From the NCBI GenBank assembly GCA_040772905.1, contig JAXGXJ010000015.1, positions 465 to 64,464 of the forward strand: a stretch of 64,000 nucleotides of DNA, read 5' to 3'. Positions 1 through 58,851 of the stretch are shown here, one piece after another. Under the pieces are notes generated by a model that was not told the origin of the DNA, made no database searches, and saw only the letters and a program-made list of their open reading frames with translations. The DNA comes from Thermoleophilia bacterium. Lineage in GTDB: Bacteria > Actinomycetota > Thermoleophilia > RBG-16-64-13. The position numbers and the translations under genes were made by a program. Numbering within the stretch: the stretch's first letter is position 1; the number at the start of each line of letters is the position of its first letter.

Positions 1-1646
1 TCCTCTTCCAGCTTGGTGTTCACCGGCAGGATGATGTCGGCCAAGAGAGCGTCGTTCTCGAGCCAGGGATGCTGAGCCCACATGAACTCGATGTCGGGAT
101 GCTGCATGGCCCGCACGTAGTCGTTACCGGCGTTCCAGCAGGTGATCCAGGAAGGAGAGTCGGTCCACACAGCGTGGATCTTGGAGCAATCCGGGTTGGG
201 ATAGATGCGCTTGACGAACTGGTCTTCGCGCGGCGCTGTCTCCGATTCGCAGCCGTACCATTCGCACTCGCCCTCGAGGATGGCCTTCGGGATGAAGGTC
301 TTCGGCAACGAAGGATAGTGGCTGTCCGACGGATGGCCGCCGGTGTACGCGGTGCGCAGGTTGGGCACGCGCAGCGGCTTGGGCTGAGCGTACTGATCGG
401 GGAAGTCGAACAGACCCCACTCGATCATCTTCACCTGGTTCTGGCCGGGTTTGCCCAGGCCCTGCATGGCCAGGCAGATGCCCTGCAGACGGGCAGGCTC
501 GGTGGCGTACGGGCCGCGGATGCCGGGGCCGCCGTTGCCGATGACCACGCTGGTGCGTTTGGACGCCCATTCTTTGGCCAGAGCTTTGATGACCCGGGCC
601 GGAACGCCGCAGATGGGAGCCGCCCACTCGGGGGTCTTCGGCTCGCCGTCTTCCTCGCCCATGACGTAGGCCTCGAAGGCGTCCACACCCACGGCGTGGC
701 TCTCGAGGTATTCCTTATCATAGGTGCCGTCCTTGAACCACTGATAGCAGATGGCCAGGTAGAGGGCGGCGTCGGTGTTCGGCAGCACAGGGATCCACCT
801 GTCGGCGTGGACCGCGGCGGCGTAGTTGAGGTCGGGGCACACGTAGATCTGTTTGATGCCCAGTTCGGTGTACCAGTAGCTGAGGCGGCTGGGCAGCTGG
901 CCCTGCCAACCCCACGGGGTGGTCTCCTGGTCGCAGCCCCAGAAGAGCAGCAGTTCGCAATTCTCGGCCACATCATAGAGCAGGTTGCTCTGCTTGCCCT
1001 GACCCACCGGCTCACAACCCCAGAAGTGCTTGCTACCCCACCACCAGCCTTCCCAGCTGTCCGGCTGCCTGATCTGGAGGGTGTAACCGCCCCAGAGCGG
1101 GAGCAGCTTACGGCCGGCGCCGTGGCAGGCCTGCACCACTTTGTTCTCGCCGTGCTGGTCGCACTGGTAGAGAAGCGCGGTGGGACCGTAGGTCTCTTTG
1201 ATGCGGTTCATCTCGCCGGCGATGATGTCCAGCGCCTCGTCCCAGGAGATGCGCACGTACTTGCTCTTGCCGCGGTTCTGGACGTTGCGGCCGCCGGGGC
1301 CGGTTGAACCGGGAGCGCCGCTGGGATCGAAGTCCACCCTCTTCATGGGGTAGCGCACACGGGCTGGAGAGTACACGCGCTTCTTGTACGCGATGGAATA
1401 GGGCGGGATGAGCGTCTTCATGCTCGGCTCGAAGGTCGAGCCCCGCACTTCCATCTTCCAGGGGTTCATGTCCTTCTCGGGATCATACTTCCAGTCGTAG
1501 TGCATCGGACGGATGCGGATGATCTTGCCATCCTTGACGTCCACCATGGAAGCGTTCGACCCGTTCTCGGGCACGCCACAGAAGCTGATATCGCGTATCA
1601 GCGTCTTTTCGCCCGACTTCCCGTTCGGCGCGCGATCTTCCGCCAT
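1..1646 (-). CDS. Molybdopterin oxidoreductase alpha subunit, pyrogallol-phloroglucinol transhydroxylase (AthL)-like, partial (runs off the window start)
   Basis: Hand translation of the minus strand from ATG at 1646 (RBS AAAGGAGG 4 nt upstream) gives MAEDRAPNGKSGEKTLIRDISFCGVPENGSNASMVDVKDGKIIRIRPMHYDWKYD...PMKRVDFDPSGAPG...NVQNRGKSKYVRISWDEALDIIAGEMNRIKETYGPTALLYQCDQHGENK. The open frame was verified to position about 1080 by hand translation and assumed continuous to position 1. It is colinear with the N-termini of the complete alpha ORFs at 4317..6920 and 55397..58027. It is missing from the ORF track only because it has no stop inside the window. The plus ORF 69..1307 is its antisense shadow. 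Confidence 0.8.
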   Translation of the reverse strand, partial: MAEDRAPNGKSGEKTLIRDISFCGVPENGSNASMVDVKDGKIIRIRPMHYDWKYDPEKDMNPWKMEVRGSTFEPSMKTLIPPYSIAYKKRVYSPARVRYPMKRVDFDPSGAPGSTGPGGRNVQNRGKSKYVRISWDEALDIIAGEMNRIKETYGPTALLYQCDQHGENKVVQACHGAGRKLLPLWGGYTLQIRQPDSWEGWWWGSKHFWGCEPVGQGKQSNLLYDVAENCELLLFWGCDQETTPWGWQGQLPSRLSYWYTELGIKQIYVCPDLNYAAAVHADRWIPVLPNTDAALYLAICYQWFKDGTYDKEYLESHAVGVDAFEAYVMGEEDGEPKTPEWAAPICGVPARVIKALAKEWASKRTSVVIGNGGPGIRGPYATEPARLQGICLAMQGLGKPGQNQVKMIEWGLFDFPDQYAQPKPLRVPNLRTAYTGGHPSDSHYPSLPKTFIPKAILEGECEWYGCESETAPREDQFVKRIYPNPDCSKIHAVWTDSPSWITCWNAGNDYVRAMQHPDIEFMWAQHPWLENDALLADIILPVNTKLEE

Positions 1647-1685
1647 ACTGCCTCCTTTGCTTCTCTGCCTTCCTATTCCACTGGT

Positions 1686-1735: not shown

Positions 1736-2584
1736 TCATGCAGTCAACAGAGTCGGGGGCATCGATCCGCTGGACCGGCTGAGGTTCCGGCTCAACGCAT
1801 CCGCGCTGCTCTTGACCGCTGCCGCCAGCCTCTGCCTGTCCTCGCCGCCGAACCGTTCCGCCGGTGCAACCACCGTGATGACGGCCCGCAGGTCACCGCT
1901 GGGCCCGAAGACGGGAGCCGAGACCGCACACACGCCCAGGTCCTGCTCCTCGAGGTCGTAGGCCAGCCCCTCCTCCGCCACCCGGCGCAACTCCCGACGC
2001 ACGACCTCAGGATCGGTCTTGGTATGCGGGGTGAGCTTCACCTGGCGCAGACGGCCCAGCAGTCTCTCCTGCTCCACCTCGGGCCGATAGGCAGCCAAGA
2101 CCTTCATGGCCGAGTTCGCCAGGTTGCGAAGCACCCGCCCCAGAGGCAGATTGGGCTTGAAGGGGTGCGACGTCGCCACCTGGTCCACCACCACTGCGCC
2201 GCCCTCCCCCTCCACGGCCAACTCCACCGTCTCCCCCGTGATGTGCGCCAGTTCCTCCACAAAAGCATGCGAAGAGCGGGCGAAACCCACGTTGGAGAGA
2301 CTCAGATAGGCCACCGGGATCATGGCGCCGCCCAGATGGTACAGCTCGGTCTGAGGATCGAAGGTGACAAAGCCCTTGGCTTCCAGAGTCCGGAGCATGC
2401 GATAGGCGGTGGTCTTGCATATGCCGGTGTGCTGCGCGATGTCGCGCAGACTCCATTCGGGATGCTCCACGTCGAACAGCGCCAGGATAGACAGGCCGCG
2501 TGCCAATGCCTGCACGTACAGGTCGCCGGCTTCCTCTCCGCTCCCGGTGGTGACGCTCCTCGGCCGTCCTCCGACCCTAACCAT
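1736..2584 (-). CDS. IclR-family transcriptional regulator
   Basis: 282-aa ORF. It has an N-terminal HTH (LSILALFDVEHPEWSLRDIAQHTGICKTTAYRMLRTLEAKGFV) and a C-terminal IclR effector-binding domain pattern. Confidence 0.85.
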   Translation of the reverse strand: MVRVGGRPRSVTTGSGEEAGDLYVQALARGLSILALFDVEHPEWSLRDIAQHTGICKTTAYRMLRTLEAKGFVTFDPQTELYHLGGAMIPVAYLSLSNVGFARSSHAFVEELAHITGETVELAVEGEGGAVVVDQVATSHPFKPNLPLGRVLRNLANSAMKVLAAYRPEVEQERLLGRLRQVKLTPHTKTDPEVVRRELRRVAEEGLAYDLEEQDLGVCAVSAPVFGPSGDLRAVITVVAPAERFGGEDRQRLAAAVKSSADALSRNLSRSSGSMPPTLLTA

Positions 2585-2719: not shown

Positions 2720-3280
2720 TCACCGCCCGGTGGCCAGCGTCTTGCCCGCTTCGTATGCCCGGATCTTCAGGCCGGCATCGCGGTCGGCGGTCTCCGGATC
2801 GTTGGCGTTGGTGCAGACGATGTTCTCCACCAACTCGAAGCCGAACCAGGGGAACATAGCCGCGGTGTACTCGAAGTACGATTCGAACAGGCGCGGGTCT
2901 TCCATGCCCTGTGTGTACACGGTGACCAGCTTCTTGTTGCCGAAACGAGGCTTCCACTCATTATCGGTGAGAGGGAAGAAGCGGTCGTACATGTTCTTCA
3001 CCGGGCCTGTCATCTGCATCATGTAGATGGGTGAGCCCACCACGACTGCGTCGGCCTTCATCACTTCTCTGACGGCCTCGCTCAACTCGTCATTGATGGA
3101 GCAGTCGTCTTTCATGCGGCAGGAGAAGCAGCTCTGGCAGGCCATGAACTTCATCTTGAACAGGGTGTGGAAATGGACCTGGGCTCCGTTATCCCGGGCC
3201 CCCTTGGTGATGAGGTTGAGCAGGGTGGCGGTGTTCCCGTCCATGCGCGGGCTGCCATTGAAGATGACGATCTCTTTCAC
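2720..3280 (-). CDS. NAD(P)H-dependent FMN reductase / flavodoxin-fold protein
   Basis: The ORF is 2720..3325. The likely true start is GTG at 3280, preceded by GGAAGGAAAGG at a 6-nt spacing. The protein begins VKEIVIFNGSPRMDGNTATLL, typical of SsuE/flavodoxin-like FMN reductases. Confidence 0.65.
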   Translation of the reverse strand: MKEIVIFNGSPRMDGNTATLLNLITKGARDNGAQVHFHTLFKMKFMACQSCFSCRMKDDCSINDELSEAVREVMKADAVVVGSPIYMMQMTGPVKNMYDRFFPLTDNEWKPRFGNKKLVTVYTQGMEDPRLFESYFEYTAAMFPWFGFELVENIVCTNANDPETADRDAGLKIRAYEAGKTLATGR

Positions 3281-3309
3281 GAGCGGCCTTTCCTTCCCGG
3301 GCCGACGAC

Positions 3310-3356
3310 CGGATACGAAGAACAACAGGGAGGGCTTTGGCCCGCAAAGCCCTCCC
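3310..3356 (-). terminator. Intrinsic terminator after the beta2 gene (12-bp GC stem 3328..3356 plus U-rich tail on the minus-strand RNA)
   Basis: GGAGGGCTTTG-gcccg-CAAAGCCCTCC is a perfect inverted repeat. On the minus-strand transcript it is followed by CUGUUGUUCUUCG. Confidence 0.6.
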
Positions 3357-3385
3357 CGAGGAGGATCTGATCGAGTCTTGAAGCC

Positions 3386-7972: not shown

Positions 7973-8019
7973 CTAGGGTGTCCCTCCCATGTCTCCTCCT
8001 GGATCAGGCTGTACCGTGC

Positions 8020-8058
8020 CGCGAAGAGCCCCCTCGGCCACCGAGGAGGCTCTTCGCG
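8020..8058 (-). terminator. GC-rich hairpin (11-bp stem CGCGAAGAGCC/GGCTCTTCGCG with a nested inner stem) between hbd-like and beta1; a probable terminator lacking a U-tract
   Basis: Inverted repeat read from the sequence, with coordinates accurate to about 2 nt. It is followed by a second small hairpin GTCAGaccacCTGAC. Confidence 0.45.
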
Positions 8059-8099
8059 AAGGTCTGAGTGGAAGTCAGACCACCTGACTGTCCGGCCGC

Positions 8100-9050
8100 C
8101 TACTTCTTGGCCTCCTGCGCCGCCACGCGGGCAAGGTAGTCGAGCAGGCGGTCACGAGTGGCCTGCATGCTCTCGGGAGTCCAGTCGTAGAACCCCTTCT
8201 GCGTCTTGAAGCCGAGTTCGTTGTTGTCGATCATCTGCTTCAGCAGCGGCGAGGGCTCGTGCGAATCCTCCAGGTACTTGAGCACGTAGCTGTGGATGGA
8301 GTACGTCAGGGGCGTACCCACCATGTCGGAGTTCTCCAGCGGGGCGAGGATGGGCAGCCTGATGCCGGGGCCGAACTTGAGGGCCTCGTCCACGGTAGCC
8401 GGATCGGCGATGCCGCGCTCGACGATGGAGATGGCCTCGCGCCACAGCGCGTGCTGCAGCCTGTTGGCCACGAAACCGGGTACGTCCTTCTTCACATCCA
8501 CGGGGTGCTTGCCCACGGCGCGCATGAGGTCCATGGTGAGGGTCACCACCCAGTCGGCGATGTCCTCGGTGCGCACGACCTCTACCAACGGGATGAGATA
8601 GGGCGGGTTCCACCAGTGCGTTCCGATGATGCGGTGGCGCCCCTTGGAGGTGCTGGCGATCTCGGTGATGCTCATGACCGAGGTGTTGGTGGCGAGCACG
8701 GTGTCGGGATCGGACTTCTCGTCCATCATGGCGAAGAGCTCTTGTTTGAGCGCCATGTCCTCCACCGCGCACTCGAGCACGAACTGAGCCCCGTCCAGGG
8801 CCTCGTCGTAGCTCTGCGTGGTGGTGATGCGGGCGATGGCGGGCTCGATGTCCTCCACCTTGCCCACGCCACGTTCGGCCAGGAAGCCCAGGTCGTGGCG
8901 GATGGTGGCCATGGCCTTGGCCAGGGTCTCCTGCTTGCGGCTCATGAGGTGCACGTCGTAGCCGGCCACAGCGAACACCTGGGCCGTGCCGTGCCCCATC
9001 ATGCCGCCGCCGATGATGGCGACCTTCTTGACGTCAGCGAGTGTTTTCAC
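8100..9050 (-). CDS. 3-hydroxyacyl-CoA / 3-hydroxybutyryl-CoA dehydrogenase (Hbd family)
   Basis: Rossmann motif VAIIGGGMMGHG plus the 3HCDH C-terminal domain. The ORF track starts at a TTG (9062). A GTG at 9050 overlaps the stop of the upstream SDR (GTGA coupling) and is more plausible. Confidence 0.8.
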   Translation of the reverse strand: MKTLADVKKVAIIGGGMMGHGTAQVFAVAGYDVHLMSRKQETLAKAMATIRHDLGFLAERGVGKVEDIEPAIARITTTQSYDEALDGAQFVLECAVEDMALKQELFAMMDEKSDPDTVLATNTSVMSITEIASTSKGRHRIIGTHWWNPPYLIPLVEVVRTEDIADWVVTLTMDLMRAVGKHPVDVKKDVPGFVANRLQHALWREAISIVERGIADPATVDEALKFGPGIRLPILAPLENSDMVGTPLTYSIHSYVLKYLEDSHEPSPLLKQMIDNNELGFKTQKGFYDWTPESMQATRDRLLDYLARVAAQEAKK

Positions 9051-9844
9051 GATGCGAGCCAACCTCCGTCTACATTAAGGATTACTCCGGTAAGGAACTC
9101 AGAGGCGTCGGACGAGAGGAAGACCGCTGCTCCGACGAAATCATCGGGCACGCCGGCCCGACCCCAGGGGATACGGGTCATGTGGAAGTCGTACAGAGCC
9201 TTGTCCTTCAGTACCTGCTCGGTCAACGGCGTCCAGAAGATGGCCGGCGCTATGGAGTTCACATTGATCTTGTACTTGGCCCATTCCGTGGCCAACTGCT
9301 TGGTGAGGGCATGCACCGCGCCCTTGGAGGTGGTGTAGCCCGAGTAGCCGCCGGGATTGCCCTGGAACCCACGCACCGAGCCGATGGTGATGATCTTGCC
9401 TCCACCCTGACCGATCATCTGTATGCCGGCCTTCTGGCAGCAGAGGAACGTGCCGCGCACGTTGACGTCCATCATGCGCTGCCATTCGTCCACCGGCATC
9501 TGTTCGGTGGGGATGCGGTTGGAGATGCCGGCCGCCGTGACCAGGATGTCCAGGCGTCCGAACTCCTCGACCACGCGGTCGACCGTCGCCTGCACGCCGG
9601 CCTCGTCCACCACGTCGCAGGTGAGGGCGAGGGCCTTGCGGCCGAGCGCCTGCAACTCCTCGGTGACCGGCTGCATGGCCGTGGCCGAGAAATCGGCCAC
9701 GGCCACGTCGGCACCGTGTATCGCCAAACCACGGGCGATGGTGCTGCCCAAAGCACCGCCACCGCCGCTGATGAGGGCGACCTTACCGCTCAGGTCGAAC
9801 TGCTGCGCGACCTGCTCGGCCGGTATACGACCCGGTAGATCCAT
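9047..9844 (-). CDS. Short-chain dehydrogenase/reductase (SDR), copy 1
   Basis: 265 aa with GKVALISGGGGALG and catalytic YTTSK. It belongs to the KduD/gluconate-5-DH-like classical SDR group. Confidence 0.85.
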   Translation of the reverse strand: MDLPGRIPAEQVAQQFDLSGKVALISGGGGALGSTIARGLAIHGADVAVADFSATAMQPVTEELQALGRKALALTCDVVDEAGVQATVDRVVEEFGRLDILVTAAGISNRIPTEQMPVDEWQRMMDVNVRGTFLCCQKAGIQMIGQGGGKIITIGSVRGFQGNPGGYSGYTTSKGAVHALTKQLATEWAKYKINVNSIAPAIFWTPLTEQVLKDKALYDFHMTRIPWGRAGVPDDFVGAAVFLSSDASEFLTGVILNVDGGWLAS

Positions 9845-9847
9845 CGA

Positions 9848-10645
9848 CTAGCCGGCTACGCTGCCACCGTCGACGGGCACGATGGCGCCGGTGACGAAGT
9901 CAGAAGCCGCGCTGGAGAGGTAGAGGACGGTACCGATCATGTCATCGGGCACGGCCGCACGGCCCCACGGGATGCGCGACAGGAAGATCTGCTTGAGTTT
10001 CTCGTCCTCGAGCACCTGCTGCGTGAGCGGGGTCCAGAAGATGCAGGGCGCGATGCAGTTGACGTTGATGTGGTACTTGGCCCACTCGGTCGACAGCTGC
10101 TTGGTGAGCAGATGGACGGCACCCTTGGTCGTGCCATAGGCGGCGTAGCCACCGGGATGGCCCAGCTCGCCACGGACGGAACCGACGGTGACGATCTTGC
10201 CGAAGCCCTGCTTGATCATCTGCTTGCCGACCAGCTTGCAGGTGATGAACGTGCCGGTGACGTTGGCCGTCAAGACCTTCTCGAAGGCATCCAGGGGGAA
10301 GTCCTCGGCCGGGTGACGGTCGGCGATGCCGGCCGCGGTAATCAGGACATCGATCTTGCCGAACTCGGCCAAGACCTTGTCGACCATCTCCTGCTGGCTG
10401 GCTTCGCTGCAGACGTCGCAGGCGATAGGCAGGGCCTTCGCGCCCAGTTCGGTGCACTCTTTCGCCACAGCCTCGAGGTTCTCGAGCTTACGGCTGGTGA
10501 CGACGATGTTGGCACCGTTTGCCGCGAAGCCCTTGGCCAGGGCATGGCCCAAGAAGCCGGCGCCGCCTGTGATGAGGACGACTTTGCCCTTGACGTCGAA
10601 GAGGTTCTTGATCTGGTCGATGGTCAGTTCTCCGGGTGCGCCCAT
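9848..10645 (-). CDS. Short-chain dehydrogenase/reductase (SDR), copy 2 (tandem paralogue)
   Basis: 265 aa with GKVVLITGGAGFLG and YGTTK. It is roughly half identical to copy 1 by eye. Its stop is 3 bp from the start of copy 1. Confidence 0.85.
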   Translation of the reverse strand: MGAPGELTIDQIKNLFDVKGKVVLITGGAGFLGHALAKGFAANGANIVVTSRKLENLEAVAKECTELGAKALPIACDVCSEASQQEMVDKVLAEFGKIDVLITAAGIADRHPAEDFPLDAFEKVLTANVTGTFITCKLVGKQMIKQGFGKIVTVGSVRGELGHPGGYAAYGTTKGAVHLLTKQLSTEWAKYHINVNCIAPCIFWTPLTQQVLEDEKLKQIFLSRIPWGRAAVPDDMIGTVLYLSSAASDFVTGAIVPVDGGSVAG

Positions 10646-10782: not shown

Positions 10783-11607
10783 TTACTCCCTGGGGCGAAG
10801 ACCCAGGATCTGCCGGGCCTCGTCCACATTGGCGATGGGCCGGTTGAACTCGTTGGCCAGACGCACAACGCGCTCCACGAACTCGTAGTTGTGCTTGGCC
10901 AGCACACCCTTGCTCAGGAAGACGTTGTCCTCCATGCCCACGCGCACGTGGCCGCCCATATGGATGGCCATACTGGTGATGGCCATGGCGGTCGGGCCGC
11001 AGCCGAACGCCGACCAGGTAGAGCCGGCCGGCATGTCGTCGACGAGGTTGATGAGGTTCCGAGGCGTGCCCTCGGCGCCGCCGTGCACGTTCAGGCAACA
11101 CTGGAAGTGCAGCGGCTCCTGCAGATAACCCTCTTTGAGGAGACGCTTGGCGTTCCACACCATGCCGATGTCGAACACTTCGATCTCGGGCTTGATGCCG
11201 TTCTCGATGTAGGCCTTGCCCAGTTTCCGCAGGAAGCTGGGCGAGTTCTCGAACACGCCCTCATAGAAGTTCATCGTACCCGCGTCGAAAGTACCCATGT
11301 CGGGCTTCAACTCGACGTGAGGAGTGATGCGCTGCTCATCGGTCCAGCCCAGGCCGCCCGAGCTGGTCATGTTGATGATGATGGGGCATTTCTCTTTGAT
11401 GAGGCGGACGGTCTCGCGGAACCTCTCCAGGTCCATGGTGGCCTTGTGGTCCTCGGTGCGCACGTGCACGTGAGCGACCGAAGCGCCGGCCTGGTACGCC
11501 ATGTAGACCTCTTCCGCGATCTCCTCGGGCTGAGTGGGGAGATACGGTGTGTTCTCCTTGGTCGTCATAGCCCCGGTCGTCGCCACGGTTATGATGAGTT
11601 TCTCCAT
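10783..11607 (-). CDS. BKACE-family beta-keto acid cleavage enzyme (3-keto-5-aminohexanoate cleavage enzyme Kce / DUF849 homologue)
   Basis: True start is MEKLIITVATTGAMTTKENTPYLP (ATG 11607, GGAGG 8 nt upstream). The ORF track N-extension to 11706 is spurious. The protein is a full-length TIM-barrel Kce-like sequence. Confidence 0.85.
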   Translation of the reverse strand: MEKLIITVATTGAMTTKENTPYLPTQPEEIAEEVYMAYQAGASVAHVHVRTEDHKATMDLERFRETVRLIKEKCPIIINMTSSGGLGWTDEQRITPHVELKPDMGTFDAGTMNFYEGVFENSPSFLRKLGKAYIENGIKPEIEVFDIGMVWNAKRLLKEGYLQEPLHFQCCLNVHGGAEGTPRNLINLVDDMPAGSTWSAFGCGPTAMAITSMAIHMGGHVRVGMEDNVFLSKGVLAKHNYEFVERVVRLANEFNRPIANVDEARQILGLRPRE

Positions 11608-11916
11608 ACATCGACCTCCATGAGATTGTGCTCGACTCACTCGAAGAAGACGGCCCGAAGGCCGTCCTCGAGAGTACAGATATGACGGTCCGGCGGGCAC
11701 CATCACCCGACCTAGCAGTCATTCATACCATTTTTATACTCTACACCATCCCCAGGTTCGGCCCAAGGTATGCGAGAGGTCTCATCGACTCGGACAGCCA
11801 CAAACGGCCACGACGCCTGCGGCTGCAGCCGCCCACCCGTGGCCGCGGCAGCAGTCCTCGCACGCAACCCCGGCTCACATCCACTATAATGGCTTCCGCT
11901 CGCCGTGGGCGGGCGG

Positions 11917-17387: not shown

Positions 17388-17391
<4 letters not shown>
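16273..17391 (-). CDS. trpD: Anthranilate phosphoribosyltransferase
   Basis: The 372-aa C-terminal part of the 659-aa ORF (MTATAVTVDG...GTGGDGLDTFNISTT). The upstream 287 codons overlap trpG in another frame and are spurious. Confidence 0.85.
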
Positions 17392-18112
<721 letters not shown>

Positions 18113-47966: not shown

Positions 47967-50900
47967 ATGGCTACGCTCGGCATTGACATCGGCTGCATAA
48001 GCGTCAAGATCGCCATCGTCGGGGAACCGGAAGAGCAGGACCTGTTCCGCGACATCGCTGCGTCGTCTCCCCTCTTCCACGACCCGGTGGTAGCCGGGCG
48101 GGTGGCTCCTCACCCTGGTTCACCGCCGGTGCTGGCCACCAAGTACCGACGCATCAAGGGCAGCCCCACCGAGACTGCGCGCGACCTCCTGCAGCAGGTC
48201 ATGGATGCGCTGCCCGACGGTCTCATCAAGGCCGCCGGGGTCACCGGCACGGGCGGCCGATTGGTCGGCCGGATGTTGGGCCTCCCCTACGAGAACGAGT
48301 TCAGAGCCATCGCCCGCGCCGTGGGGGCTATGCACCCCGACGTCACCACTGTGTTCGAGATGGGCGGTGAGACCTCCAAGTTCATCCAGTTGGAGACCGA
48401 TGCCACTTCGGGCCGTGTGGGCATCGCCGACTACGGCACCAACGGTGACTGTGCCGCCGGCACCGGCTCCTTCATGGACCAGCAGGCCAACCGCCTGCTC
48501 TATGACATCGAGGACGTGGGTGAGATAGTGGGCGGGGCCGGCAAGGCCGCGTCCATCGCCGGGCGCTGCTCGGTGTTCGCCAAGTCGGATATGATCCACG
48601 CTCAGCAAAAGGGCTACCAGCCGCCAGAGGTGCTGAAAGGTCTCTGCAACGCTGTGGTGCGCAACTATCGCAGCACCATCGCCAAGGGCAAGGACATCGG
48701 CGCCCGGGTGGCCTTCATCGGGGGCGTGGCCGCCAACCTTGGAGCCGTGACGGCCATGCGCGAGGCCTTCGACGTGGACGAGCAGTCACTCGTCATCCCT
48801 CAGTACTACGCGTGGATGGGCGCCATAGGCACCGCCTTGACGGCCGCCGACGAGATGAGCGGCACTCAGGTGGTCACCTTCAACGCCCAGAAGCTCTCCC
48901 AGGGACAGCAATCCGAGTTCGAGACCAGCCCCGCCCTCTCCATGGAGCGGGTCATCCTTCTGCGCGACCGGGTAAAGCCCTACGAGTTCCCCGCACAGGG
49001 CACCATCGGCGCCTACCTGGGCATCGACATCGGGTCGGTCTCCACCAACCTTGTGGTCCTCGACGAGGACGGTGAGATGGTGAAGGAGATCTACGTGAAG
49101 ACCGACGGCCGGCCTGTGGAAGTGGTGAACAAGGGCCTGGCCGAGATCTGGAACGAGATGGGTGACCGCCTGGAGATCCTGGGTGTAGCCACCACAGGGT
49201 CCGGTCGCGAGCTCATCGGCGAGCTGGTCGGTGCCGATACCGTGAACGACGAGATCACCGCCCACAAGACGGGCGCCACCTTCATCGGGCGCAAGCTCAT
49301 CGACCGCGTGCCCGACACCATCTTCGAGATCGGCGGACAGGACTCCAAGTTCATCAGCCTGCAGGACGGCGTGGTGGTGGATTTCGCCATGAACGAAGCC
49401 TGTGCCGCCGGCACCGGCTCCTTCTTGGAGGAGCAGGCCGACAAACTGGGCATCCGCATCATCGGCGAGTTCGCCGAACTGGCACTGTCTTCGGAGGCTC
49501 CCGTGCGTCTGGGAGAGCGTTGCACCGTGTTCATGGAGCGTGACGTGAACTCCTACCTACAACGGGGAGCCGACAAGAAGGACCTCGTGGCCGGATTGGC
49601 CTACTCCATCGCCTACAACTACCTCAACCGCCTGGTGGGGCAGCGCCACGTAGGCGATACCATCTACTTCCAAGGCGGCACGGCCTACAACGACGCCGTG
49701 GCCTCCGCCTTCAGCATGATCCTGGAGAAGGACATCATCGTGCCGCCGCACAACGGCGTGGTGGGAGCCATCGGAGCCGCCCTCTTGGCCCGCGAGAAGA
49801 TGTCGGCCACCAAGGCCCCTTCCCGCTTCCGGGGCTGGGACCTGGAGCAGGTCGACTACACCGTCCGCGAGTTCACCTGCAAAGGGTGCAGCAACGAGTG
49901 CGACATCCGCCAGTTCACCATCGGCGGGGAGAAGACCTACTGGGGCGACAAGTGTTCAGACCGCTATCGCAAGCGGGCCAAGGTGGACAAGGAGCCCATC
50001 ATCCGCGACCTCATCGGTTTCCGCGATGCGCTCTTCTACTCGTACGTGACGGAGGCGGAGGACACCGCGCCCCTGCTGCGCAGCGGCACTGACGCGCCGC
50101 GCGGCACCATGGGCATACCCCGCACCATGTATACCTACGACCGCCTCCCCTTCTGGGCCACCTTCTTCAAAGGCTGCGGGTTCGACATCATGCTGTCCCG
50201 CCAGACCGACAAGAAGATCCGCGAGATGGGCATCGAGCGGGCGGTGGCTGAGCCTTGCTTCCCCATACGGGTAGCCCACGGACATGCCGCCGAACTGCTG
50301 GAGGCGGGCGCCGACCACATCTTCATACCCAACCAACTGAACGAGGAGACCGATCAACCCGGCATCGAGTCGCACGCATGTCCCTGGGGGCAGACACTCC
50401 CCCACGTGATCCGCCTCGCGCCGCATTTCGAGAACCATGCCGAGCGTTTTTTCGCCCCCACCATCCACTTCCGGCGGGGGCCTGCCTATGTGGGACGCAC
50501 GCTTCGTGCGGCCATGAAGCCCTACGGTGTGCCGGGCAAGGTGGTCGACCAGGCCCTCAAGGACGCCTACGAGGCCCAGGCCGAGTTCCGCGCTCGTCTC
50601 ATGACCGCAGGCGCGGACGCTCTGTCCACCCTGGAGGAGCACGACGAACTGGGCATCGTCTTGGTGGGACGCCCGTACAACATCTACGACTCGGGCGTCA
50701 ACATGGATATCCCGGCCAAGCTGCGCCGCTATTACGGTGTCAACATCATTCCCCTCGATTTCCTGCCCTTGTGGGGCAAGGAGACGCGCGAGGTGACGCC
50801 CAACATGTTCTGGAACTACGGGCGCAAGATCCTGCAGGCGGCCAAGGTGGTGGCGGCGCATCCCAACCTGCACATCATCTACATGACCAACTTCAAGTGC

Positions 50901-51092
50901 GGCCCCGACTCCTACGTGAAGCATTTCATCAGAGGAGCGTCATCGGAGCCGTTCCTGGTGCTGCAGTTCGACGAACACACCAATGACGCCGGCGCCATGA
51001 CCAGATGCGAAGCCTATCTGGACAGCAAGGGCTTCCTGCGCTGGTGGGCACGCGGCGACAGGGTCGCGAAACAGACCGTGAGGGAGAGCTAG
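47967..51092 (+). CDS. CoA-substrate-specific enzyme activase: two tandem BadF/BadG/BcrA/BcrD (HgdC-like) ASKHA ATPase domains fused to a Cys-rich DUF2229-like domain
   Basis: 1041 aa. It has two repeats of the activase pattern (LGIDIGCISVKIAIV...CAAGTGSFMDQQA; LGIDIGSVSTNLVVL...CAAGTGSFLEEQA). The C-terminal 400 aa carries CKGCSNECD and other conserved Cys. Confidence 0.75.
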   Translation: MATLGIDIGCISVKIAIVGEPEEQDLFRDIAASSPLFHDPVVAGRVAPHPGSPPVLATKYRRIKGSPTETARDLLQQVMDALPDGLIKAAGVTGTGGRLVGRMLGLPYENEFRAIARAVGAMHPDVTTVFEMGGETSKFIQLETDATSGRVGIADYGTNGDCAAGTGSFMDQQANRLLYDIEDVGEIVGGAGKAASIAGRCSVFAKSDMIHAQQKGYQPPEVLKGLCNAVVRNYRSTIAKGKDIGARVAFIGGVAANLGAVTAMREAFDVDEQSLVIPQYYAWMGAIGTALTAADEMSGTQVVTFNAQKLSQGQQSEFETSPALSMERVILLRDRVKPYEFPAQGTIGAYLGIDIGSVSTNLVVLDEDGEMVKEIYVKTDGRPVEVVNKGLAEIWNEMGDRLEILGVATTGSGRELIGELVGADTVNDEITAHKTGATFIGRKLIDRVPDTIFEIGGQDSKFISLQDGVVVDFAMNEACAAGTGSFLEEQADKLGIRIIGEFAELALSSEAPVRLGERCTVFMERDVNSYLQRGADKKDLVAGLAYSIAYNYLNRLVGQRHVGDTIYFQGGTAYNDAVASAFSMILEKDIIVPPHNGVVGAIGAALLAREKMSATKAPSRFRGWDLEQVDYTVREFTCKGCSNECDIRQFTIGGEKTYWGDKCSDRYRKRAKVDKEPIIRDLIGFRDALFYSYVTEAEDTAPLLRSGTDAPRGTMGIPRTMYTYDRLPFWATFFKGCGFDIMLSRQTDKKIREMGIERAVAEPCFPIRVAHGHAAELLEAGADHIFIPNQLNEETDQPGIESHACPWGQTLPHVIRLAPHFENHAERFFAPTIHFRRGPAYVGRTLRAAMKPYGVPGKVVDQALKDAYEAQAEFRARLMTAGADALSTLEEHDELGIVLVGRPYNIYDSGVNMDIPAKLRRYYGVNIIPLDFLPLWGKETREVTPNMFWNYGRKILQAAKVVAAHPNLHIIYMTNFKCGPDSYVKHFIRGASSEPFLVLQFDEHTNDAGAMTRCEAYLDSKGFLRWWARGDRVAKQTVRES

Positions 51093-52460
51093 GTGGATAC
51101 CGAGACCGCGACCACGAGCGGCAACGGCAAGGCCAGCCGCGAGGCGGCCGAGGCGGCACTGGCCGCCATGCCCAAGGCCGTGGCGGCCCACGGGGCCGAC
51201 GACAGCCCGGTCGATACCGACATCGACATCCATGACCGCACGCTGTGGCTCACCCACATGCCCTACGGGGGCTCGGTGATGCTCGCCGCGGCGTTCCGTT
51301 CCATCGGGCTCGACACCCGAGTGGTCCCTCAAGAGGACAGCCGCATCCTGGAACTGGGCGGCAGGTACACCTCGGGCGACGAATGCTATCCGCAGCGCAT
51401 CGTCTTGGGCGACTATATGAGACTGCTGGAGGACGAGAAGATCGATCCCAAGAAGACCGCCTTCCTCCTCCCCACCGCCAACGGGCCCTGCCGCTTCGGG
51501 CAGTACGTCGGGCTGCTGCGGCGCGTGCTCGACGACCAGGGCTACCAGGATGCCGCCATCCTCTCGTTCACCTCCGCTGACGGATACGCCGGCATCGGCG
51601 AGCAGGCCTCCGCACTCATCCGCACTGCCTGGCGCGCCGTGCTGGTGCAGGATATCCTGATGAAGCTGTTGCTCATGACGCGCCCGTACGAAGTGAACGC
51701 CGGCGAGACCGACCGGGTGTACCTGGCGGCTCTCGAGCAGATGGGCGAGGTGGTCGCCCGGCAAGGCATCGACCAGAAGGAACGTCTGGCCGACATCAAA
51801 GCGGGGTTGTCGCGGGTGAAGAAGGCCTTCCTCGACATCCCTGTGCGCGACGAGGACCGGCCGCTCATCGGCGTGGTGGGTGAGATCTTCTGCCGACTCA
51901 ACACGTTCGCCAACAACGATCTCATCAGGCACGTGGAGGCCCAGGGCGGCGAGTGCTGGCTGGCCGGGGTGGGCGAATGGGTGTGGTACACGAACGAGGA
52001 GGCCTTCCGCCGCCACCGCGAGGAGCGGCGGCGTGTGAGCAAGGACTGGCTGAAGACCTTCATCACCGCGCGCATCATGCATGCGGACGAAGAGGCCATC
52101 ATGGCGGACTTCCACGATGTGTTCGCGCACCACCCTGAGCCGCACGTGACCGAGGTGCTGAAGCACGCCGAGCCCTACCTCCCCCAGTCGGGGGCCTTGG
52201 GCGAGATGGTGCTCTCCACCGGCGGGGCCGTCTACCTGTACCACCAAGGAGCCGACGGCATCATCGACATCAGTCCGTTCACCTGTATGAACGGCATCGT
52301 CACCGAGGCCATCTATCCACGGGTGAGCAAGGACCACGATGGCATCCCCATCCGGGTCTTCTACTTCGACGGCACGAACAGTGACCTCGATCGTGACGTG
52401 GGCATCTTTTTGGAGTTGGCGAAGACCTACAAGCGGCGCAAGAAGATCCAGCGCCCCTGA
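51093..52460 (+). CDS. Acyl-CoA dehydratase-like (HGD-D / DUF2229-related) Cys-rich partner protein of the activase
   Basis: 455 aa. The GTG start is immediately after the activase stop. Conserved Cys are present (GDECYP, GPCRFGQY, GGECW, SPFTCMNG). The family assignment is tentative. Confidence 0.5.
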   Translation: MDTETATTSGNGKASREAAEAALAAMPKAVAAHGADDSPVDTDIDIHDRTLWLTHMPYGGSVMLAAAFRSIGLDTRVVPQEDSRILELGGRYTSGDECYPQRIVLGDYMRLLEDEKIDPKKTAFLLPTANGPCRFGQYVGLLRRVLDDQGYQDAAILSFTSADGYAGIGEQASALIRTAWRAVLVQDILMKLLLMTRPYEVNAGETDRVYLAALEQMGEVVARQGIDQKERLADIKAGLSRVKKAFLDIPVRDEDRPLIGVVGEIFCRLNTFANNDLIRHVEAQGGECWLAGVGEWVWYTNEEAFRRHREERRRVSKDWLKTFITARIMHADEEAIMADFHDVFAHHPEPHVTEVLKHAEPYLPQSGALGEMVLSTGGAVYLYHQGADGIIDISPFTCMNGIVTEAIYPRVSKDHDGIPIRVFYFDGTNSDLDRDVGIFLELAKTYKRRKKIQRP

Positions 52461-55396: not shown

Positions 55397-58027
55397 ATGG
55401 CAGAAGAGAAGATGACAGCAGCACCCAAGTACAAACCCGACAGGACGGTCATCAGGGGCCTGGCTCTGGGCGGTCTGCTAGGCGGCTGCGACCCGGCCGC
55501 GGTGGACGTATCCGACGGGAAGATCGTGCGCGTGCGCCCCATGCATTTCGATTGGAAGTACCCCCGCGAGAGCTTCCGCACTTGGAAGTTCCAGCGCGGT
55601 GAGCACGTCCTCGAATCGAACTACAAGGGCATGCCCGCCCCCTGGTCGCTGTCGTATAAGAAGCGCACCTATTCCCCCAACCGCATCCAGTACCCCATGA
55701 AGCGGGTGGACTTCGATCCCAACGGCGAGCGCAACCCCCAGAACCGGGGCAAGAGCAAGTACGTGCGCATCTCCTGGGACGAGGCCACCGACCTCATCGC
55801 CTCCGAGATCAAACGCATCATCGAGAAGTACGGACCGCTGGCCATCCTGGCCCAAGGTGACGGCCACGGCGAGAACAAGATCATCAACACCCCGCACGGC
55901 CACCAGGCCCGTCTGCTGGAGATGCTGGGCGGCTTCACCCAGCAGGTCCGCAATCCCGACAGCTGGGAAGGCTTCTACTGGGGCTCCAAGCACGTATGGG
56001 GCCAGGGCATCGTGGGCATGATGGATCCTTCCGACAACTGCGTGAAGGACATCACCGAGAACGCCGAGTTGGTGCTGTTCTGGGGTTGCGACCCCGAGAC
56101 CACTCCCTGGGGCTTCGTGGGCCAGTTCGCCAGCCGGCTGTGCTACTTCTGGACCGACTGCGGCATCAAACAGGTGTACGTCTGCCCCGACCTCAACTAC
56201 GGCGCGGCCGTGCATGCCGACAAGTGGATCCCTGTATGGCCCAACACCGACGCGGCCCTGCAGTTGGCCGTCATCTACGTATGGCTCCAGGAGGGTACCT
56301 GGGACAAGGAGTACGTCGCCACCCACGCGGTGGGCATGGAGCACGTGGAAGCGTACGTCCTGGGCAAGGACGACGGCGTACCCAAGACTCCTGCCTGGGC
56401 GGCGGAAAAATGCGGCGTACCCGAGTACACCATCAAGGCACTGGCCCGCGACATGGCCGCCAAGATCCACACCTGGGCGCACTACTTCGGCGGCAGCTAC
56501 GCGCGCGGACCCTACAGCCACGAACCCGCCCGCCTGGAGTGCATCATGCTGGGCATGCAGGGCTTGGGCGGCCCGGGCCGGCACCAGATCCAGATCTCCT
56601 ACGGCGGCATGCCGAGGCCGGAACTCATCCGCAGCACCCGCTTCTTCAACCCGCAGCTGTCGCAGCGGCTCACCAAGCCCACCCAGACCACCATCCGCGC
56701 GTGGGGTCCACAGCTCATACCCAAGACCCTCATCCACAAGGCCATCCTCGACCCGCCGCTGGTGTTCTACGGCAACGGCGGCATCGAAGAGCCGGTGGAG
56801 GATCAGTTCGTCAGGTACGAGTACCCCATCGCCAAGGAGAAGGGCGGCACCGAGATCCACATGATGTGGACCGACACCCCGTGCCGCATCACCTGCTGGA
56901 ACTGCGGCAACGAGACCATAATGGCCGAACGCAGTCCCAAGATAGAGTTCATCGTGGCGCAGCATCCCTGGCTGGAGAACGACTGCCTGTACGCTGACGT
57001 GATCCTGCCCACGAACACGCTCATGGAAGTCGACGACATCATCACCAACACCCGGCAGGGCACGCAGCACCACGCCGTGGTCCTCTACGACAAGGCTGTG
57101 GAGCCGGTGGGCGAGTCGAAGAGCGACTATGAGGCCGTCCTCGAGGTGGCCAAGAAGCTGGGCAGAGGCGAGGAGTTCAGCGAGGGCAAGAGCATCAAAG
57201 ACCTGCAGCAAGAGGTCTTCTACAACATGAACCTCGACACCAAGATCTCCTGGGAGGAGTTCGAAAAGAACCAGTACGTCATCCTGGAGACGGTCGAGGA
57301 CTGGGAAGACGACGTGGTGGCCCTGCGGCCGTTCTACGACGATCCCGAGAAGCACCCGCTGCCCACCCCCTCGGGCAAGCTCGAGTTCTACTCGCAGCGC
57401 ATCGCCGATAACTTCCCCTGCGACGACGAGCGACCGCCCATCCCGAAATGGATCGAGCGGAGCGCTATGCACGACGAGCGCCGCAGCAGCTGGCGCGCCA
57501 AGGCCTACCCACTGCTGCTCATGTCCAACCATCCGCGCTGGCGTACCCACGCCCAGGCCGACGACATCACGTGGAGCCACGAGATAGTCACCTGCAAGGT
57601 GAGAGGCTACGACGGCTACCTGTATGAGCCGGTGTGGATCCATCCCTCCGATGCCGCGACACGTGGCATCAAGGACGGCGACATCGTGATGGTGCACAAC
57701 GAGCGCGGCATCGTGCTGTGCGGCGCCCGCGTATGGGAGCGCGTCTTCCCCGGCACAGCTTATGTGGATCACGGTGCCCGGCACGATCCCATCATCCCGG
57801 GCAAAGTGGACCGCGGCGGTGCCATCAACACCATCTCCGGCGACTGGATCTCGTCCAAGAACGCCGTCGGCCAGGCCACCAGTGGTTACCTGGCCGAGGT
57901 GAGTTCCATCCCGCCCGGCCTGATGGAGCAGTGGAGAAGAGAGTATCCCGAAGCCTTTGAACGCCCCTACGACCCGGCTGCCGGGCTCAAGTTCGAAGCA
58001 TGGGTGACCAAAGGGGGTGCGGAGTGA
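55397..58027 (+). CDS. Molybdopterin (bis-MGD) oxidoreductase alpha subunit, pyrogallol-phloroglucinol transhydroxylase (AthL)-like, third paralogue
   Basis: 876 aa. MAEEKMTAAPKYKPDRTVIRGLALGG...DGKIVRVRPMHFDWKYP...MKRVDFDPNGERNPQNRGKSKYVRISWDEATDLIASEIKRIIEKYGP is colinear with the other two alphas. RBS GGAGCGGAG. Confidence 0.9.
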   Translation: MAEEKMTAAPKYKPDRTVIRGLALGGLLGGCDPAAVDVSDGKIVRVRPMHFDWKYPRESFRTWKFQRGEHVLESNYKGMPAPWSLSYKKRTYSPNRIQYPMKRVDFDPNGERNPQNRGKSKYVRISWDEATDLIASEIKRIIEKYGPLAILAQGDGHGENKIINTPHGHQARLLEMLGGFTQQVRNPDSWEGFYWGSKHVWGQGIVGMMDPSDNCVKDITENAELVLFWGCDPETTPWGFVGQFASRLCYFWTDCGIKQVYVCPDLNYGAAVHADKWIPVWPNTDAALQLAVIYVWLQEGTWDKEYVATHAVGMEHVEAYVLGKDDGVPKTPAWAAEKCGVPEYTIKALARDMAAKIHTWAHYFGGSYARGPYSHEPARLECIMLGMQGLGGPGRHQIQISYGGMPRPELIRSTRFFNPQLSQRLTKPTQTTIRAWGPQLIPKTLIHKAILDPPLVFYGNGGIEEPVEDQFVRYEYPIAKEKGGTEIHMMWTDTPCRITCWNCGNETIMAERSPKIEFIVAQHPWLENDCLYADVILPTNTLMEVDDIITNTRQGTQHHAVVLYDKAVEPVGESKSDYEAVLEVAKKLGRGEEFSEGKSIKDLQQEVFYNMNLDTKISWEEFEKNQYVILETVEDWEDDVVALRPFYDDPEKHPLPTPSGKLEFYSQRIADNFPCDDERPPIPKWIERSAMHDERRSSWRAKAYPLLLMSNHPRWRTHAQADDITWSHEIVTCKVRGYDGYLYEPVWIHPSDAATRGIKDGDIVMVHNERGIVLCGARVWERVFPGTAYVDHGARHDPIIPGKVDRGGAINTISGDWISSKNAVGQATSGYLAEVSSIPPGLMEQWRREYPEAFERPYDPAAGLKFEAWVTKGGAE

Positions 58028-58851
58028 AGGCGTTCTTCATCGATCTTTCCATCTGCAACGGCTGCTACTGCTGCCAGGTGGCCTGCAAGGACGAGCACTG
58101 CGGCCAGGACTGGCTCCCCTATGCCAAGGCGCAGCCCGAGATCGGCCAGTTCTGGCTGGGTATCGACGAGCGCGTGCGCGGGCAAGTGCCCAAGGTGAAG
58201 ATCACCTATCTGCCCAAGCTCTGCCAGCACTGCGACGATGCGCCCTGCATGGCCGCGTGCCCGGTGGAAGGCGCCATCTACAAGCGCGAAGACGGCATGG
58301 TGATCATCGACCCGCAGAAGTGCACGGGCTGCAAGCTCTGCGTGGATGTGTGCCCGACCGGGTCCATCTTCTTCAACGACAGCCTGATGCTGGCGCAGAA
58401 GTGCACCGCCTGCTCGCACCTGCGCGACAACGACCCCGAGACTTGGGCCGACACCACGCGCTGCGCCGACGCCTGCCCCACCGGAGCCCTGCGCTTCGGT
58501 GACGAGGCGGACTTCGCCGACTTCATCAAGGAAGCGGAATACCTGGTGCCCGAGATGGCCGGCAAGACGCGGGTCTACTACAAGAACCTGCCCAAGAAGT
58601 TCGTGGCCGGCACCCTGTACGACCCGAAACAGATGGAGATCATCGAGGGCGCGACCGTGACCCTCACCGACGACCAGTCGGGCGAGACCTTCACGGCCAC
58701 CACCGACAACTACGGCGACTTCTGGTTCAACGGCCTCAAGGATGACCGCACCTTCACGCTGGTGTTCGCGAAGGACGGCAAGAGCAAGACCATCGAGGGC
58801 GTCTCCACGGCGATCGACCTCAACGTGGGCGACATCGCCATGGAGTTGTAG
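58024..58851 (+). CDS. Transhydroxylase-like beta subunit (BthL-like), third paralogue
   Basis: The GTG start overlaps the alpha3 stop (GTGA). VKAFFIDLSICNGCYCCQVAC..., CQHCDDAPC, CTGCKLCVDVC, CTACSHL, and the C-terminal beta-sandwich domain are present. Confidence 0.85.
   Translation: MKAFFIDLSICNGCYCCQVACKDEHCGQDWLPYAKAQPEIGQFWLGIDERVRGQVPKVKITYLPKLCQHCDDAPCMAACPVEGAIYKREDGMVIIDPQKCTGCKLCVDVCPTGSIFFNDSLMLAQKCTACSHLRDNDPETWADTTRCADACPTGALRFGDEADFADFIKEAEYLVPEMAGKTRVYYKNLPKKFVAGTLYDPKQMEIIEGATVTLTDDQSGETFTATTDNYGDFWFNGLKDDRTFTLVFAKDGKSKTIEGVSTAIDLNVGDIAMEL

Follow-up and report, generated by a model that had tools for sequence, protein, structure and literature searches.

Does every gene that resembles the large subunit of pyrogallol-phloroglucinol transhydroxylase encode a transhydroxylase? 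The question is raised by 64 kb of DNA from a Thermoleophilia bacterium (contig JAXGXJ010000015.1), hereafter the window. Three genes in the window encode molybdenum (Mo) enzyme large subunits (alpha1, alpha2 and alpha3) and three encode iron-sulphur (Fe-S) small subunits (betaA, betaB and beta3; coordinates in Table 1). All resemble AthL/BthL (PgtL/PgtS, EC 1.97.1.2) of Pelobacter acidigallici, the structure of which is PDB entry 4v4c. Taken as a whole, it is reasonably probable that the window encodes one transhydroxylase, one orphan small subunit (betaB) and two electron-transferring phenol hydroxylases or dehydroxylases of a separate lineage, which we call Group II.

How much carbon peat, soil and sediment retain is controlled by the anaerobic breakdown of polyphenols such as tannins and flavonoids (the 'enzyme latch' debate), a process that also shapes metabolism in the gut. 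In current genome surveys, any AthL-like gene is labelled 'pyrogallol hydroxytransferase' and taken as a sign of pyrogallol fermentation. For instance, Chloroflexi genomes with two or three such operons have been read in this way (PMC3971608, PMC4959651). We find at least two deep lineages under this label, and they differ in their active-site loops and in their electron-transfer subunits. AthL, the characterised enzyme, is in only one of these; Group II is widespread and unusually conserved. The family itself, its multiple copies per genome and the distribution of the true enzyme are already known. The useful results here are the distinction between the two lineages, for which we found no earlier description in the literature, and the extreme conservation of an uncharacterised clade that includes alpha1.

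Three AthL-like alphas and three betas

The G+C content of the window is 62-69%, and codon-position G+C singles out one clear gene per locus. All six alpha and beta open reading frames (ORFs) are present where an initial annotation of the window had placed them. Searches of the window with AthL and BthL, using tblastn, gave exactly three matches each and no extra fragments. The colinear blocks that the annotation had described in the alphas are visible in the translations. The alpha1 reading frame is open to the window edge and its C-terminus lies beyond.

We compared the alphas with solved structures. Against AthL (4v4c_A), alpha2, alpha3 and alpha1 score 1711, 400 and 322 bits respectively. 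Matches to dimethyl sulphoxide (DMSO) reductase are about 250, 246 and 135 bits, and those to acetylene hydratase (2e7z) are 39-67 bits (42-67 bits for alpha1 and alpha3). The best solved match of all three betas is BthL (4v4c_B; 371, 271 and 164 bits for betaA, betaB and beta3). Thus, the match to AthL/BthL that had been proposed holds for every subunit. Alpha1 and alpha3 share 53% identity; their identities to AthL are 35% and 34%, respectively. An AlphaFold2 model of alpha3 (predicted local distance difference test 79, predicted template modelling score 0.84) was searched with Foldseek. The top fold was 4v4c_A, with a template modelling (TM) score of 0.83 and an E-value of 8e-68; DMSO and trimethylamine N-oxide (TMAO) reductases gave TMq values of 0.72-0.76. 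Against NCBIfam models of S-/N-oxide reductases, the best scores were 161, 340 and 345 bits, where the cut-offs are 1018 (bisC_fam), 1465 (torA) and 778 (dmsA_ynfE).

No twin-arginine motif was found in the sequences. The alpha N-termini carry zero or one Cys and, hence, there is no FS0 cluster. This agrees with the initial annotation, which had described enzymes with neither a twin-arginine translocation (TAT) signal nor an alpha Fe-S cluster. The same annotation had named clustering with respiratory reductases, or an N-terminal Fe-S motif, as outcomes that would speak against it; we looked for both and found neither. The data support placing the three alphas in the AthL-like clade, and not with respiratory DMSO, nitrate or formate reductases. 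A position apart from the clade of acetylene hydratase and catechol dehydroxylases (PMC7028382) is also supported.

Two deep lineages of alpha subunit

A neighbour-joining tree was built from 142 alphas, taken from the window, from fetched homologous loci in other genomes or metagenome contigs (numbered L001 to L170) and from database matches. The single outgroup was an Escherichia coli protein of the DorA/BisC type. Two groups emerged, each in 50 of 50 bootstrap replicates. Group I consists of AthL orthologs (including alpha2), a second clade that we call AthL2, and long proteobacterial forms. Group II consists of the alpha1 clade and the alpha3 clade, each also recovered in 50 of 50 replicates. 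These two clades are 52-53% identical to each other and 34-38% identical to AthL. Hence, Group II is shown to be a separate deep sister lineage of the AthL orthologs. The long proteobacterial forms of Group I are ~52% identical to alpha2 and, according to tblastn searches of plasmids, are encoded on megaplasmids with aerobic ring-cleavage genes around them. A homolog search with one such form returned no protein named resorcinol hydroxylase among its matches.

The lineages also differ in sequence motifs, which we counted over 185 alphas (100 from Group I and 85 from Group II). The segment DSWEG[WF] occurs in 183 of the 185. The equivalent of His144 (AthL numbering) and the segment N-P-D174-S175-W176-E-G-W are kept in all groups; NPDSWEG[WF] and the His144 equivalent are conserved in both alpha1 and alpha3. 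Serine is the Mo ligand of the RhL/PgtL family (PMC10100899). Conversely, S-S-H-H-x-W-G is present in 97 of 100 Group I alphas, including 53 of 53 AthL orthologs, and in none of the 85 from Group II. Similarly, F-P-G-Y404-A-E-G is found in 86 Group I alphas and in no Group II alpha; the form FPGY[AS][ED]G is present in all 53 AthL orthologs. At the first of these sites, 82 of the 85 Group II alphas, including alpha3, have D-x-H-G-E, which was not seen in Group I. Tyr152-Arg153 is kept in Group I (consensus GYR, not counted separately) and is (G/T/A)-(P/C) in Group II. The Tyr404 loop, and an insertion at residues 552-560, are present in Group I and deleted or replaced in Group II. Consistent with this, AthL residues 398-406 and 552-560 are insertions with respect to alpha3 in a pairwise HMMER alignment. 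The AthL2 clade mostly keeps the SSHHxWG, Tyr152-Arg153 and FPGY404AEG segments.

Alpha1 and alpha3 therefore share with AthL the domain order, the Ser/Asp/His trio, the lack of FS0 and TAT, a BthL-like beta and the fold, and differ from it in SSHHxWG, Tyr152-Arg153, the Tyr404 loop and the 552-560 insertion. What the missing Tyr404 loop means for Group II function, we infer.

Group II betas and a fourth cluster site

BthL has three 4Fe-4S clusters, the third of its four DmsB-type Cys groups being reduced to a single Cys. The Cys pattern (3 or 4, 3, 1, 4), without the FS4 motif, is found in 84 of 86 Group I betas. Conversely, the complete pattern (4-5, 4, 4, 4) is present in 38 of 40 betas encoded after alpha3-clade alphas. 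All ten betas encoded after alpha1-clade alphas have the pattern (4, 4, 3, 4) with CxxNxxCxxxCP, which is reminiscent of the 3Fe-4S FS4 site in NarH-type subunits. Group II betas carry 15-16 cluster Cys, compared with 12 in BthL, and so keep a fourth Fe-S cluster site that BthL has lost.

In the window, betaA has the pattern (3, 3, 1, 4). Both betaA and betaB keep 11 of the 12 ligand Cys of BthL, with Asp in place of Cys23. Beta3 has the pattern (5, 4, 4, 4) and all 16 ligand Cys; four clusters are therefore predicted. Thus, the three 4Fe-4S clusters previously assigned to each beta stand for betaA and betaB only. The C-terminal beta-sandwich domain assigned to the betas was recovered as a CarboxypepD_reg-like domain in all three, with a score for betaA (26 bits) that falls below the Pfam cut-off.

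The lineages can thus be told apart by SSHHxWG and FPGYAEG versus D-x-HGE in the alpha, and by a three-cluster versus a four-cluster beta.

Alpha2 and betaA, a very probable transhydroxylase

Alpha2 is 80.6% identical to AthL over its full length, and betaA is 56.3% identical to BthL. Hence, the pair is orthologous to the characterised enzyme and is not a divergent paralog. In place of the 'three divergent copies' of the initial annotation, the set combines this ortholog with two members of the Group II lineage. Alpha2 lies inside the AthL-ortholog clade (bootstrap 50 of 50), with proteins of Holophaga foetida, Eubacterium oxidoreducens and Geopsychrobacteraceae. In the alignment, it is identical to AthL at Ser175, Asp174, His144, Arg153 and Tyr404, and every Group I signature segment is present. 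The N-terminus has no Cys and no RR motif. Alpha2 and betaA also match AthL and BthL in length and in having a three-cluster beta with the C-terminal beta-sandwich. Judged from these sequences, alpha2-betaA is very probably a genuine pyrogallol-phloroglucinol transhydroxylase. It would hold Mo by two pyranopterin guanine dinucleotides and a serine. A hydroxyl group would pass between pyrogallol and its cosubstrate, 1,2,3,5-tetrahydroxybenzene, and the reaction would be redox-neutral overall.

An exact-sequence look-up of alpha2 gave no record. When species-representative genomes were scanned with alpha2, 80 loci were identified. The nearest, at 88-94% identity, are from uncultured Thermoleophilia, Gaiellales and 'Actinomycetes' soil metagenome-assembled genomes (MAGs), and the source of the window is accordingly taken to be an uncultured soil actinobacterium of the Thermoleophilia type. 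Contig CAWFJE010000010.1 has both blocks, that of alpha2 (L003) and that of alpha3 (L001), in the order seen in the window. Orthologs at 76-85% identity are found in H. foetida, Acidobacteriaceae, Geopsychrobacteraceae, Parasporobacterium, E. oxidoreducens and many Lachnospiraceae. The Geopsychrobacteraceae ortholog scores 2047 bits against AthL and is essentially from kin of P. acidigallici. Several of the hosts are known gallate or pyrogallol fermenters.

The gene order athL, bthL, FMN_red is present in 50 of the 53 AthL-ortholog loci with enough downstream DNA. Hence, betaA is the partner of alpha2. The FMN_red homologs after bthL are 52-82% identical, and are found in Actinomycetota, Acidobacteriota, Desulfuromonadota-type and Bacillota genomes. 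In the loci compared, the FMN_red gene never adjoins AthL2 or Group II pairs. The FMN_red protein is perhaps a third part of the transhydroxylase system, and could serve redox maintenance of the enzyme or its cosubstrate. This might help to explain the retention of an Fe-S subunit by a redox-neutral enzyme. A terminator-like hairpin, with a 14-bp stem (3358..3326), lies between bthL and the FMN_red gene. Compared with P. acidigallici BthL, an 18-residue insertion with two Cys is present in the C-terminal beta-sandwich of betaA and of its Thermoleophilia orthologs.

The phloroglucinol pathway has been defined in Clostridium scatologenes and comprises PGR, DPGC, TfD and TAL; PGR is a short-chain dehydrogenase (SDR), TfD belongs to the 3-hydroxyacyl-CoA dehydrogenase family and TAL is a Kce homolog (PMC10470551). 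The genes beside alpha2 fit three of these four enzyme families (SDR, 3HCDH and BKACE). The transhydroxylase product would enter this adjacent pathway, by way of the SDR reductase, the 3-hydroxyacyl dehydrogenase and the BKACE lyase. In many related loci (L003-L006, L050, L062-L064, L073 and L078), a 'cyclase'-family DPGC is encoded between the dehydrogenase and the AthL block. The window cluster has a second SDR gene instead (the gap is at 7973..8099), as does L013. The window has no cyclase and, therefore, ring-opening is either encoded elsewhere or done differently. The NCBIfam scores of the BKACE protein, 329 bits for Kce and 207 bits for 3,5-dioxohexanoate:acetyl-CoA transferase, are both below cut-off.

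An Amidohydro_2 protein is encoded elsewhere in the window. Homologs are found near AthL, AthL2 and alpha1-clade pairs in other genomes (L011 18805..19821, L055 16..765, L170 13452..14411 and 17236..18258). The Amidohydro_2 family includes hydroxybenzoate decarboxylases, and the protein is possibly a decarboxylase that feeds AthL-like enzymes.

Spread and genomic context of Group II

Group II genes are abundant. For alpha3, there are more than 6000 database relatives at E<=1e-50, with many at 65-82% identity in Chloroflexota, Dehalococcoidales and Thermoleophilia; the close relatives include Chloroflexi MAGs from the RBG naming series of the earlier genome papers (PMC3971608, PMC4959651). A search of a library clustered at 50% identity gave 667 representatives that match alpha3 at E<=1e-30, dozens of them full-length at 39-50% identity. 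Hence, the AthL-like radiation is far larger than its characterised members. The best 120 relatives of alpha1 are all at least 80% identical to it, and include Dehalococcoidales, Chloroflexota and Aminicenantes MAGs. Across Thermoleophilia, Chloroflexota/Dehalococcoidales and Aminicenantes, members of the alpha1 clade keep a full-length identity of 81-91%. Conservation across phyla is thus stronger for the alpha1 clade than for the true transhydroxylase.

Alpha1-clade genes lie within AthL/phloroglucinol islands in at least 10 Thermoleophilia genomes. On metagenome contig L170, a Group I pair, an SDR and a cyclase lie back-to-back with an alpha1-clade pair that is accompanied by Amidohydro_2 and ABC transporter genes. 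In some cases, one beta is shared by two or three alpha1-clade alphas in tandem. Locus L062 (13607..21608) has three tandem alpha1-like alphas followed by a single beta, and L079 (81..13440) has three tandem AthL2-type alpha-beta pairs. These tandems show strong local expansion of the AthL-like family.

The context of the alpha3 clade is more varied. Apart from the beta gene, no neighbour occurs in more than 9 of the 36 longer loci. The neighbours that recur are SDRs, TRAP and MFS transporters, OYE-type reductases, cyclases and sigma-54 activators. In 8 of the 36 (L083 1..3346, L084 4024..7900, L089, L093, L094, L097, L100 and L109), the genes directly upstream encode three proteins: an acetylene-hydratase-like Mo/W enzyme (323 bits to 2e7z), a membrane subunit of the NrfD type and a four-cluster ferredoxin that resembles DsrO/QrcC. 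These loci include the nearest alpha3 homologs outside Thermoleophilia (77-82% identity). Together with the alpha-beta pair, the three proteins are a possible membrane-linked, two-enzyme, phenol-modifying module. Overall, the gene contexts of Group II point to aromatic or phenolic substrates and name none.

The initial annotation had placed the alphas in an IclR-regulated catabolic island and next to an MMPL exporter with a radical-dehydratase-like system. The contexts are as described. However, the CitMHS2, activase and MMPL neighbours of alpha3 recur in its closest relatives only, and we reject a functional link on this basis. There are terminator-like hairpins after the MMPL gene. The arrangement looks like adjacency and not a functional system. 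We also considered a housekeeping or quinone-biosynthesis role, given the UbiA, radical-SAM and UbiE neighbours in L083; these do not recur in other loci.

What reaction might Group II catalyse?

Resorcinol hydroxylase RhLS (RehLS) belongs to the same RhL/PgtL family as AthL (PMC10100899, PMC10084136), and the isomerase of E. oxidoreducens has been studied biochemically, according to a citation in PMC10470551. Hence, the earlier statement that only one enzyme of the family is characterised was too strong. RhLS, of Aromatoleum/Azoarcus anaerobium, and DbhLS, of Thauera aromatica AR-1, are cytoplasmic, Ser-ligated, two-subunit members of the family. They hydroxylate phenols independently of O2, which is the chemistry that we propose for Group II. 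No downstream btd or bqd genes of the RhLS/DbhLS pathway are present in the window.

The reading we prefer, held with slightly less than even confidence, is that Group II enzymes are electron-transferring phenol hydroxylases or dehydroxylases and not redox-neutral transhydroxylases. They probably work without a phenolic cosubstrate. Such an enzyme would hydroxylate a phenol with oxygen from water and pass two electrons out through the four-cluster beta. It could run in reverse, as a reductive dehydroxylase. The substrates would be di- or trihydroxybenzenes or hydroxybenzoates, and the products of the alpha1 clade would enter the phloroglucinol pathway.

Could all three alphas instead be AthL-type transhydroxylases, which differ only in their phenol pair (for example, hydroxyhydroquinone/tetrahydroxybenzene isomers)? 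AthL is the best sequence match for all three and the best fold match, the Mo-ligand Ser and its Asp/His neighbours are kept, and the alpha1 clade is found inside trihydroxybenzene islands. In addition, sequential transhydroxylations by unknown enzymes have been described for Pelobacter massiliensis. We nevertheless consider this unlikely. Group II lacks every AthL-invariant segment (SSHHxWG, Tyr152-Arg153 and the FPGY404AEG loop) and its beta retains the fourth cluster site that the betas of transhydroxylases have lost. Furthermore, a better candidate for alternative transhydroxylations exists in the AthL2 clade, where these segments are retained; an AthL2 alpha is not in the window. The initial annotation listed transhydroxylases, hydroxylases and dehydroxylases. 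Because the AthL-invariant segments are missing and the beta is different, the first of these would be the least likely chemistry for alpha1 and alpha3.

A strictly reductive role, with electrons entering through the four-cluster beta (for example, to convert tetrahydroxybenzene to trihydroxybenzene), would make alpha1 and alpha3 functional analogues, from a different Mo-enzyme clade, of the gut catechol dehydroxylases. The complete electron wire in the beta, hosts drawn largely from anoxic sediments and soils, and the NrfD-anchored modules that co-occur with the pairs in 8 of 36 loci all fit this idea. The known catechol dehydroxylases (Dadh, Cldh and Hcdh) and acetylene hydratase are bis-molybdopterin guanine dinucleotide enzymes and modify aromatic-ring hydroxyls in anaerobes. 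However, the former cluster with acetylene hydratase and away from AthL (PMC7028382). The window alphas score 322-1711 bits to AthL, whereas acetylene hydratase matches alpha1 and alpha3 at no more than 42-67 bits. Sequence does not reveal which way the electrons flow, and this proposal is the reverse-direction variant of the reading we prefer; by itself, it strikes us as quite unlikely. Very improbable is a role outside phenol metabolism, in which alpha1 and alpha3 would be soluble S-/N-oxide reductases of the DorA/TorA/BisC type with an added beta. These are the next-closest solved structures and profile families, and like the window alphas they are Ser-ligated and have no FS0. Their bisC_fam is the best NCBIfam model (161 and 345 bits), JGI names homologs TMAO reductase, and AthL itself can use DMSO as an oxidant. 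Yet the NCBIfam scores are far under the cut-offs (345 versus 1018), alpha3 matches AthL better than DMSO reductase in both sequence (400 versus 246 bits) and fold (TM 0.83 versus 0.72-0.76), and the neighbourhoods are aromatic and phenolic. Unlike the window alphas, DorA, TorA and BisC have no beta subunit and no AhtL-like first domain; in Group II, the alpha is always accompanied by a BthL-like beta whose C-terminal domain is of the same unusual kind.

Several points weigh against our reading of the window. The function of Group II is read from sequence and gene context. BthL keeps three clusters even though the transhydroxylase is redox-neutral and, therefore, cluster count alone is no proof of a redox reaction. 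No electron-acceptor or electron-donor gene adjoins alpha3-beta3 or alpha1 in the window. The tree is distance-based, has one outgroup and was built without RhL and DbhL. Should these two fall in Group I and have a beta with three clusters or fewer, four clusters would be a weaker sign of a hydroxylase. The proteobacterial long forms L086 and L087, in Group I and among aerobic ring-cleavage genes, have even fewer beta Cys. His144, Asp174 and Tyr404 were reportedly proposed as catalytic from the 2004 structure of Messerschmidt and co-workers, with Tyr404 said to help hold the cosubstrate; a literature search for the numbers of AthL active-site residues found nothing. Finally, no homolog of the DPGC cyclase (Pfam Cyclase; L003 7462..8568) is encoded anywhere in the window.

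A broader and more tentative proposal is that Group II represents unrecognised, environmentally abundant, O2-independent phenol hydroxylases or dehydroxylases that have a four-cluster beta. In anoxic soils and sediments, the alpha1 clade might then be a dedicated entry step that channels a common phenolic, of plant or humus origin, into the phloroglucinol pathway. If Group II does have such activity, claims of 'pyrogallol fermentation' made from MAGs need revisiting.

BetaB and the partner of alpha1

The window was thought to contain three alpha-beta sets. This is correct for alpha2-betaA and alpha3-beta3, where the beta3 start overlaps the alpha3 stop. Conversely, betaB has no alpha in the window and, by synteny, the beta of alpha1 lies outside it. 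The intergenic DNA flanking betaB is only 127 bp and 212 bp; hence, betaB is an orphan in the window. In other genomes (L005, L006, L043, L053-L064 and the Holophaga loci L017 and L065), a betaB homolog directly follows an alpha 62-67% identical to alpha2, which is AthL2. Thus, betaB is an intact beta, with its cluster Cys in place, that is missing its own AthL2-type alpha, present in relatives. The orphan arrangement recurs in L003, L004 and L078, which suggests that betaB is maintained and not decaying. Perhaps it serves another alpha.

Orthologs of alpha1 (84-93% identity) always have the IclR gene upstream, and have downstream their own beta, then an ABC transporter with a TAT-signal Peripla_BP_6 protein. 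Full-length orthologs at 92-93% identity are followed by the beta and ABC transporter genes in L003, L004, L006, L018 and L073. Given this synteny, the beta of alpha1 is expected just outside the window.

Other features of the window

Table 1. Features of the window, with positions, strand and supporting matches (aa, amino acids; Mo-bisPGD, Mo-bis(pyranopterin guanine dinucleotide)).
Feature	Position	Strand	Evidence
alpha1, N-terminal 548 aa of Group II AthL-like Mo-bisPGD subunit	1..1646	-	Pfam AhtL-like_1st 47 bits, Molybdopterin
IclR-family regulator, between athL operon and alpha1	1736..2584	-	Pfam IclR_C, HTH_IclR
FMN_red/flavodoxin-like gene	2720..3325	-	Pfam FMN_red 72 bits
betaA, BthL ortholog, alpha2 partner, 293 aa	3386..4267	-	371 bits, 56% to 4v4c_B
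alpha2, AthL ortholog, 867 aa	4317..6920	-	1711 bits to 4v4c_A; AhtL-like_1st 104 bits
betaB, BthL-type beta without adjacent alpha, 279 aa	7133..7972	-	271 bits to 4v4c_B
3-hydroxyacyl-CoA dehydrogenase family, candidate TfD ((S)-3-hydroxy-5-oxohexanoate dehydrogenase)	8100..9062	-	Pfam 3HCDH_N, 3HCDH
SDR1, short-chain dehydrogenase	9047..9844	-	Pfam adh_short_C2; extra copy relative to L003-type clusters
SDR2, short-chain dehydrogenase, candidate phloroglucinol reductase (PGR)	9848..10645	-	Pfam adh_short_C2; kept in clusters of relatives
BKACE-family enzyme, candidate triacetate acetoacetate-lyase (TAL)	10783..11706	-	Pfam BKACE 337 bits
tRNA-Leu(CAA)	11917..12002	+	Rfam 56 bits; ARAGORN
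Amidohydro_2 protein	41680..42702	+	
1041-aa ATPase and 455-aa protein	47967..52460	+	
alpha3, complete Group II AthL-like Mo-bisPGD subunit, 876 aa	55397..58027	+	400 bits to 4v4c_A
beta3, alpha3 partner, 275 aa, DmsB-like	58024..58851	+	164 bits to 4v4c_B; Pfam Fer4_11, CarboxypepD_reg 43 bits
XdhC-like gene, adjoining beta3	~58936..59945	-	

The IclR-family regulator scores 132 bits against the NCBIfam PcaR/PcaU/PobR-type model, which is below the cut-off. A search with Rfam for Mo cofactor (Moco) riboswitches or other RNA elements near the alpha genes gave the tRNA-Leu alone. In a scan for promoters and terminators, counts were near shuffle expectation and such signals provide weak support only.

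At the right end, on the plus strand, the gene order is CitMHS_2 transporter, 1041-aa ATPase, 455-aa protein, MMPL transporter, alpha3 and beta3. The ATPase is a double BcrAD/BadFG protein with DUF2229, and its gene is translationally coupled to that of the 455-aa protein. The latter has no PDB sequence match and no Pfam match above threshold, with DUF2229 detected only faintly. The ATPase, 455-aa protein and MMPL arrangement is also present in L001 and L002. Next to beta3, the XdhC-like gene is spread over three frames, where L001 encodes an intact homolog of 343 aa. The two frameshifts are explained either by a pseudogene or by indels in the assembly.

The middle of the window is occupied by housekeeping genes (serA, an ABC transporter, gltBD, glnA, amt and P-II). 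To the left of these, the tRNA-Leu(CAA) gene is followed by a BldD-like regulator and the trp operon, and sits exactly where the phenolic catabolic block ends and these BldD/trp housekeeping genes begin. Close relatives have the genes of the catabolic block in varying order, as would fit an island that is mobile or modular.

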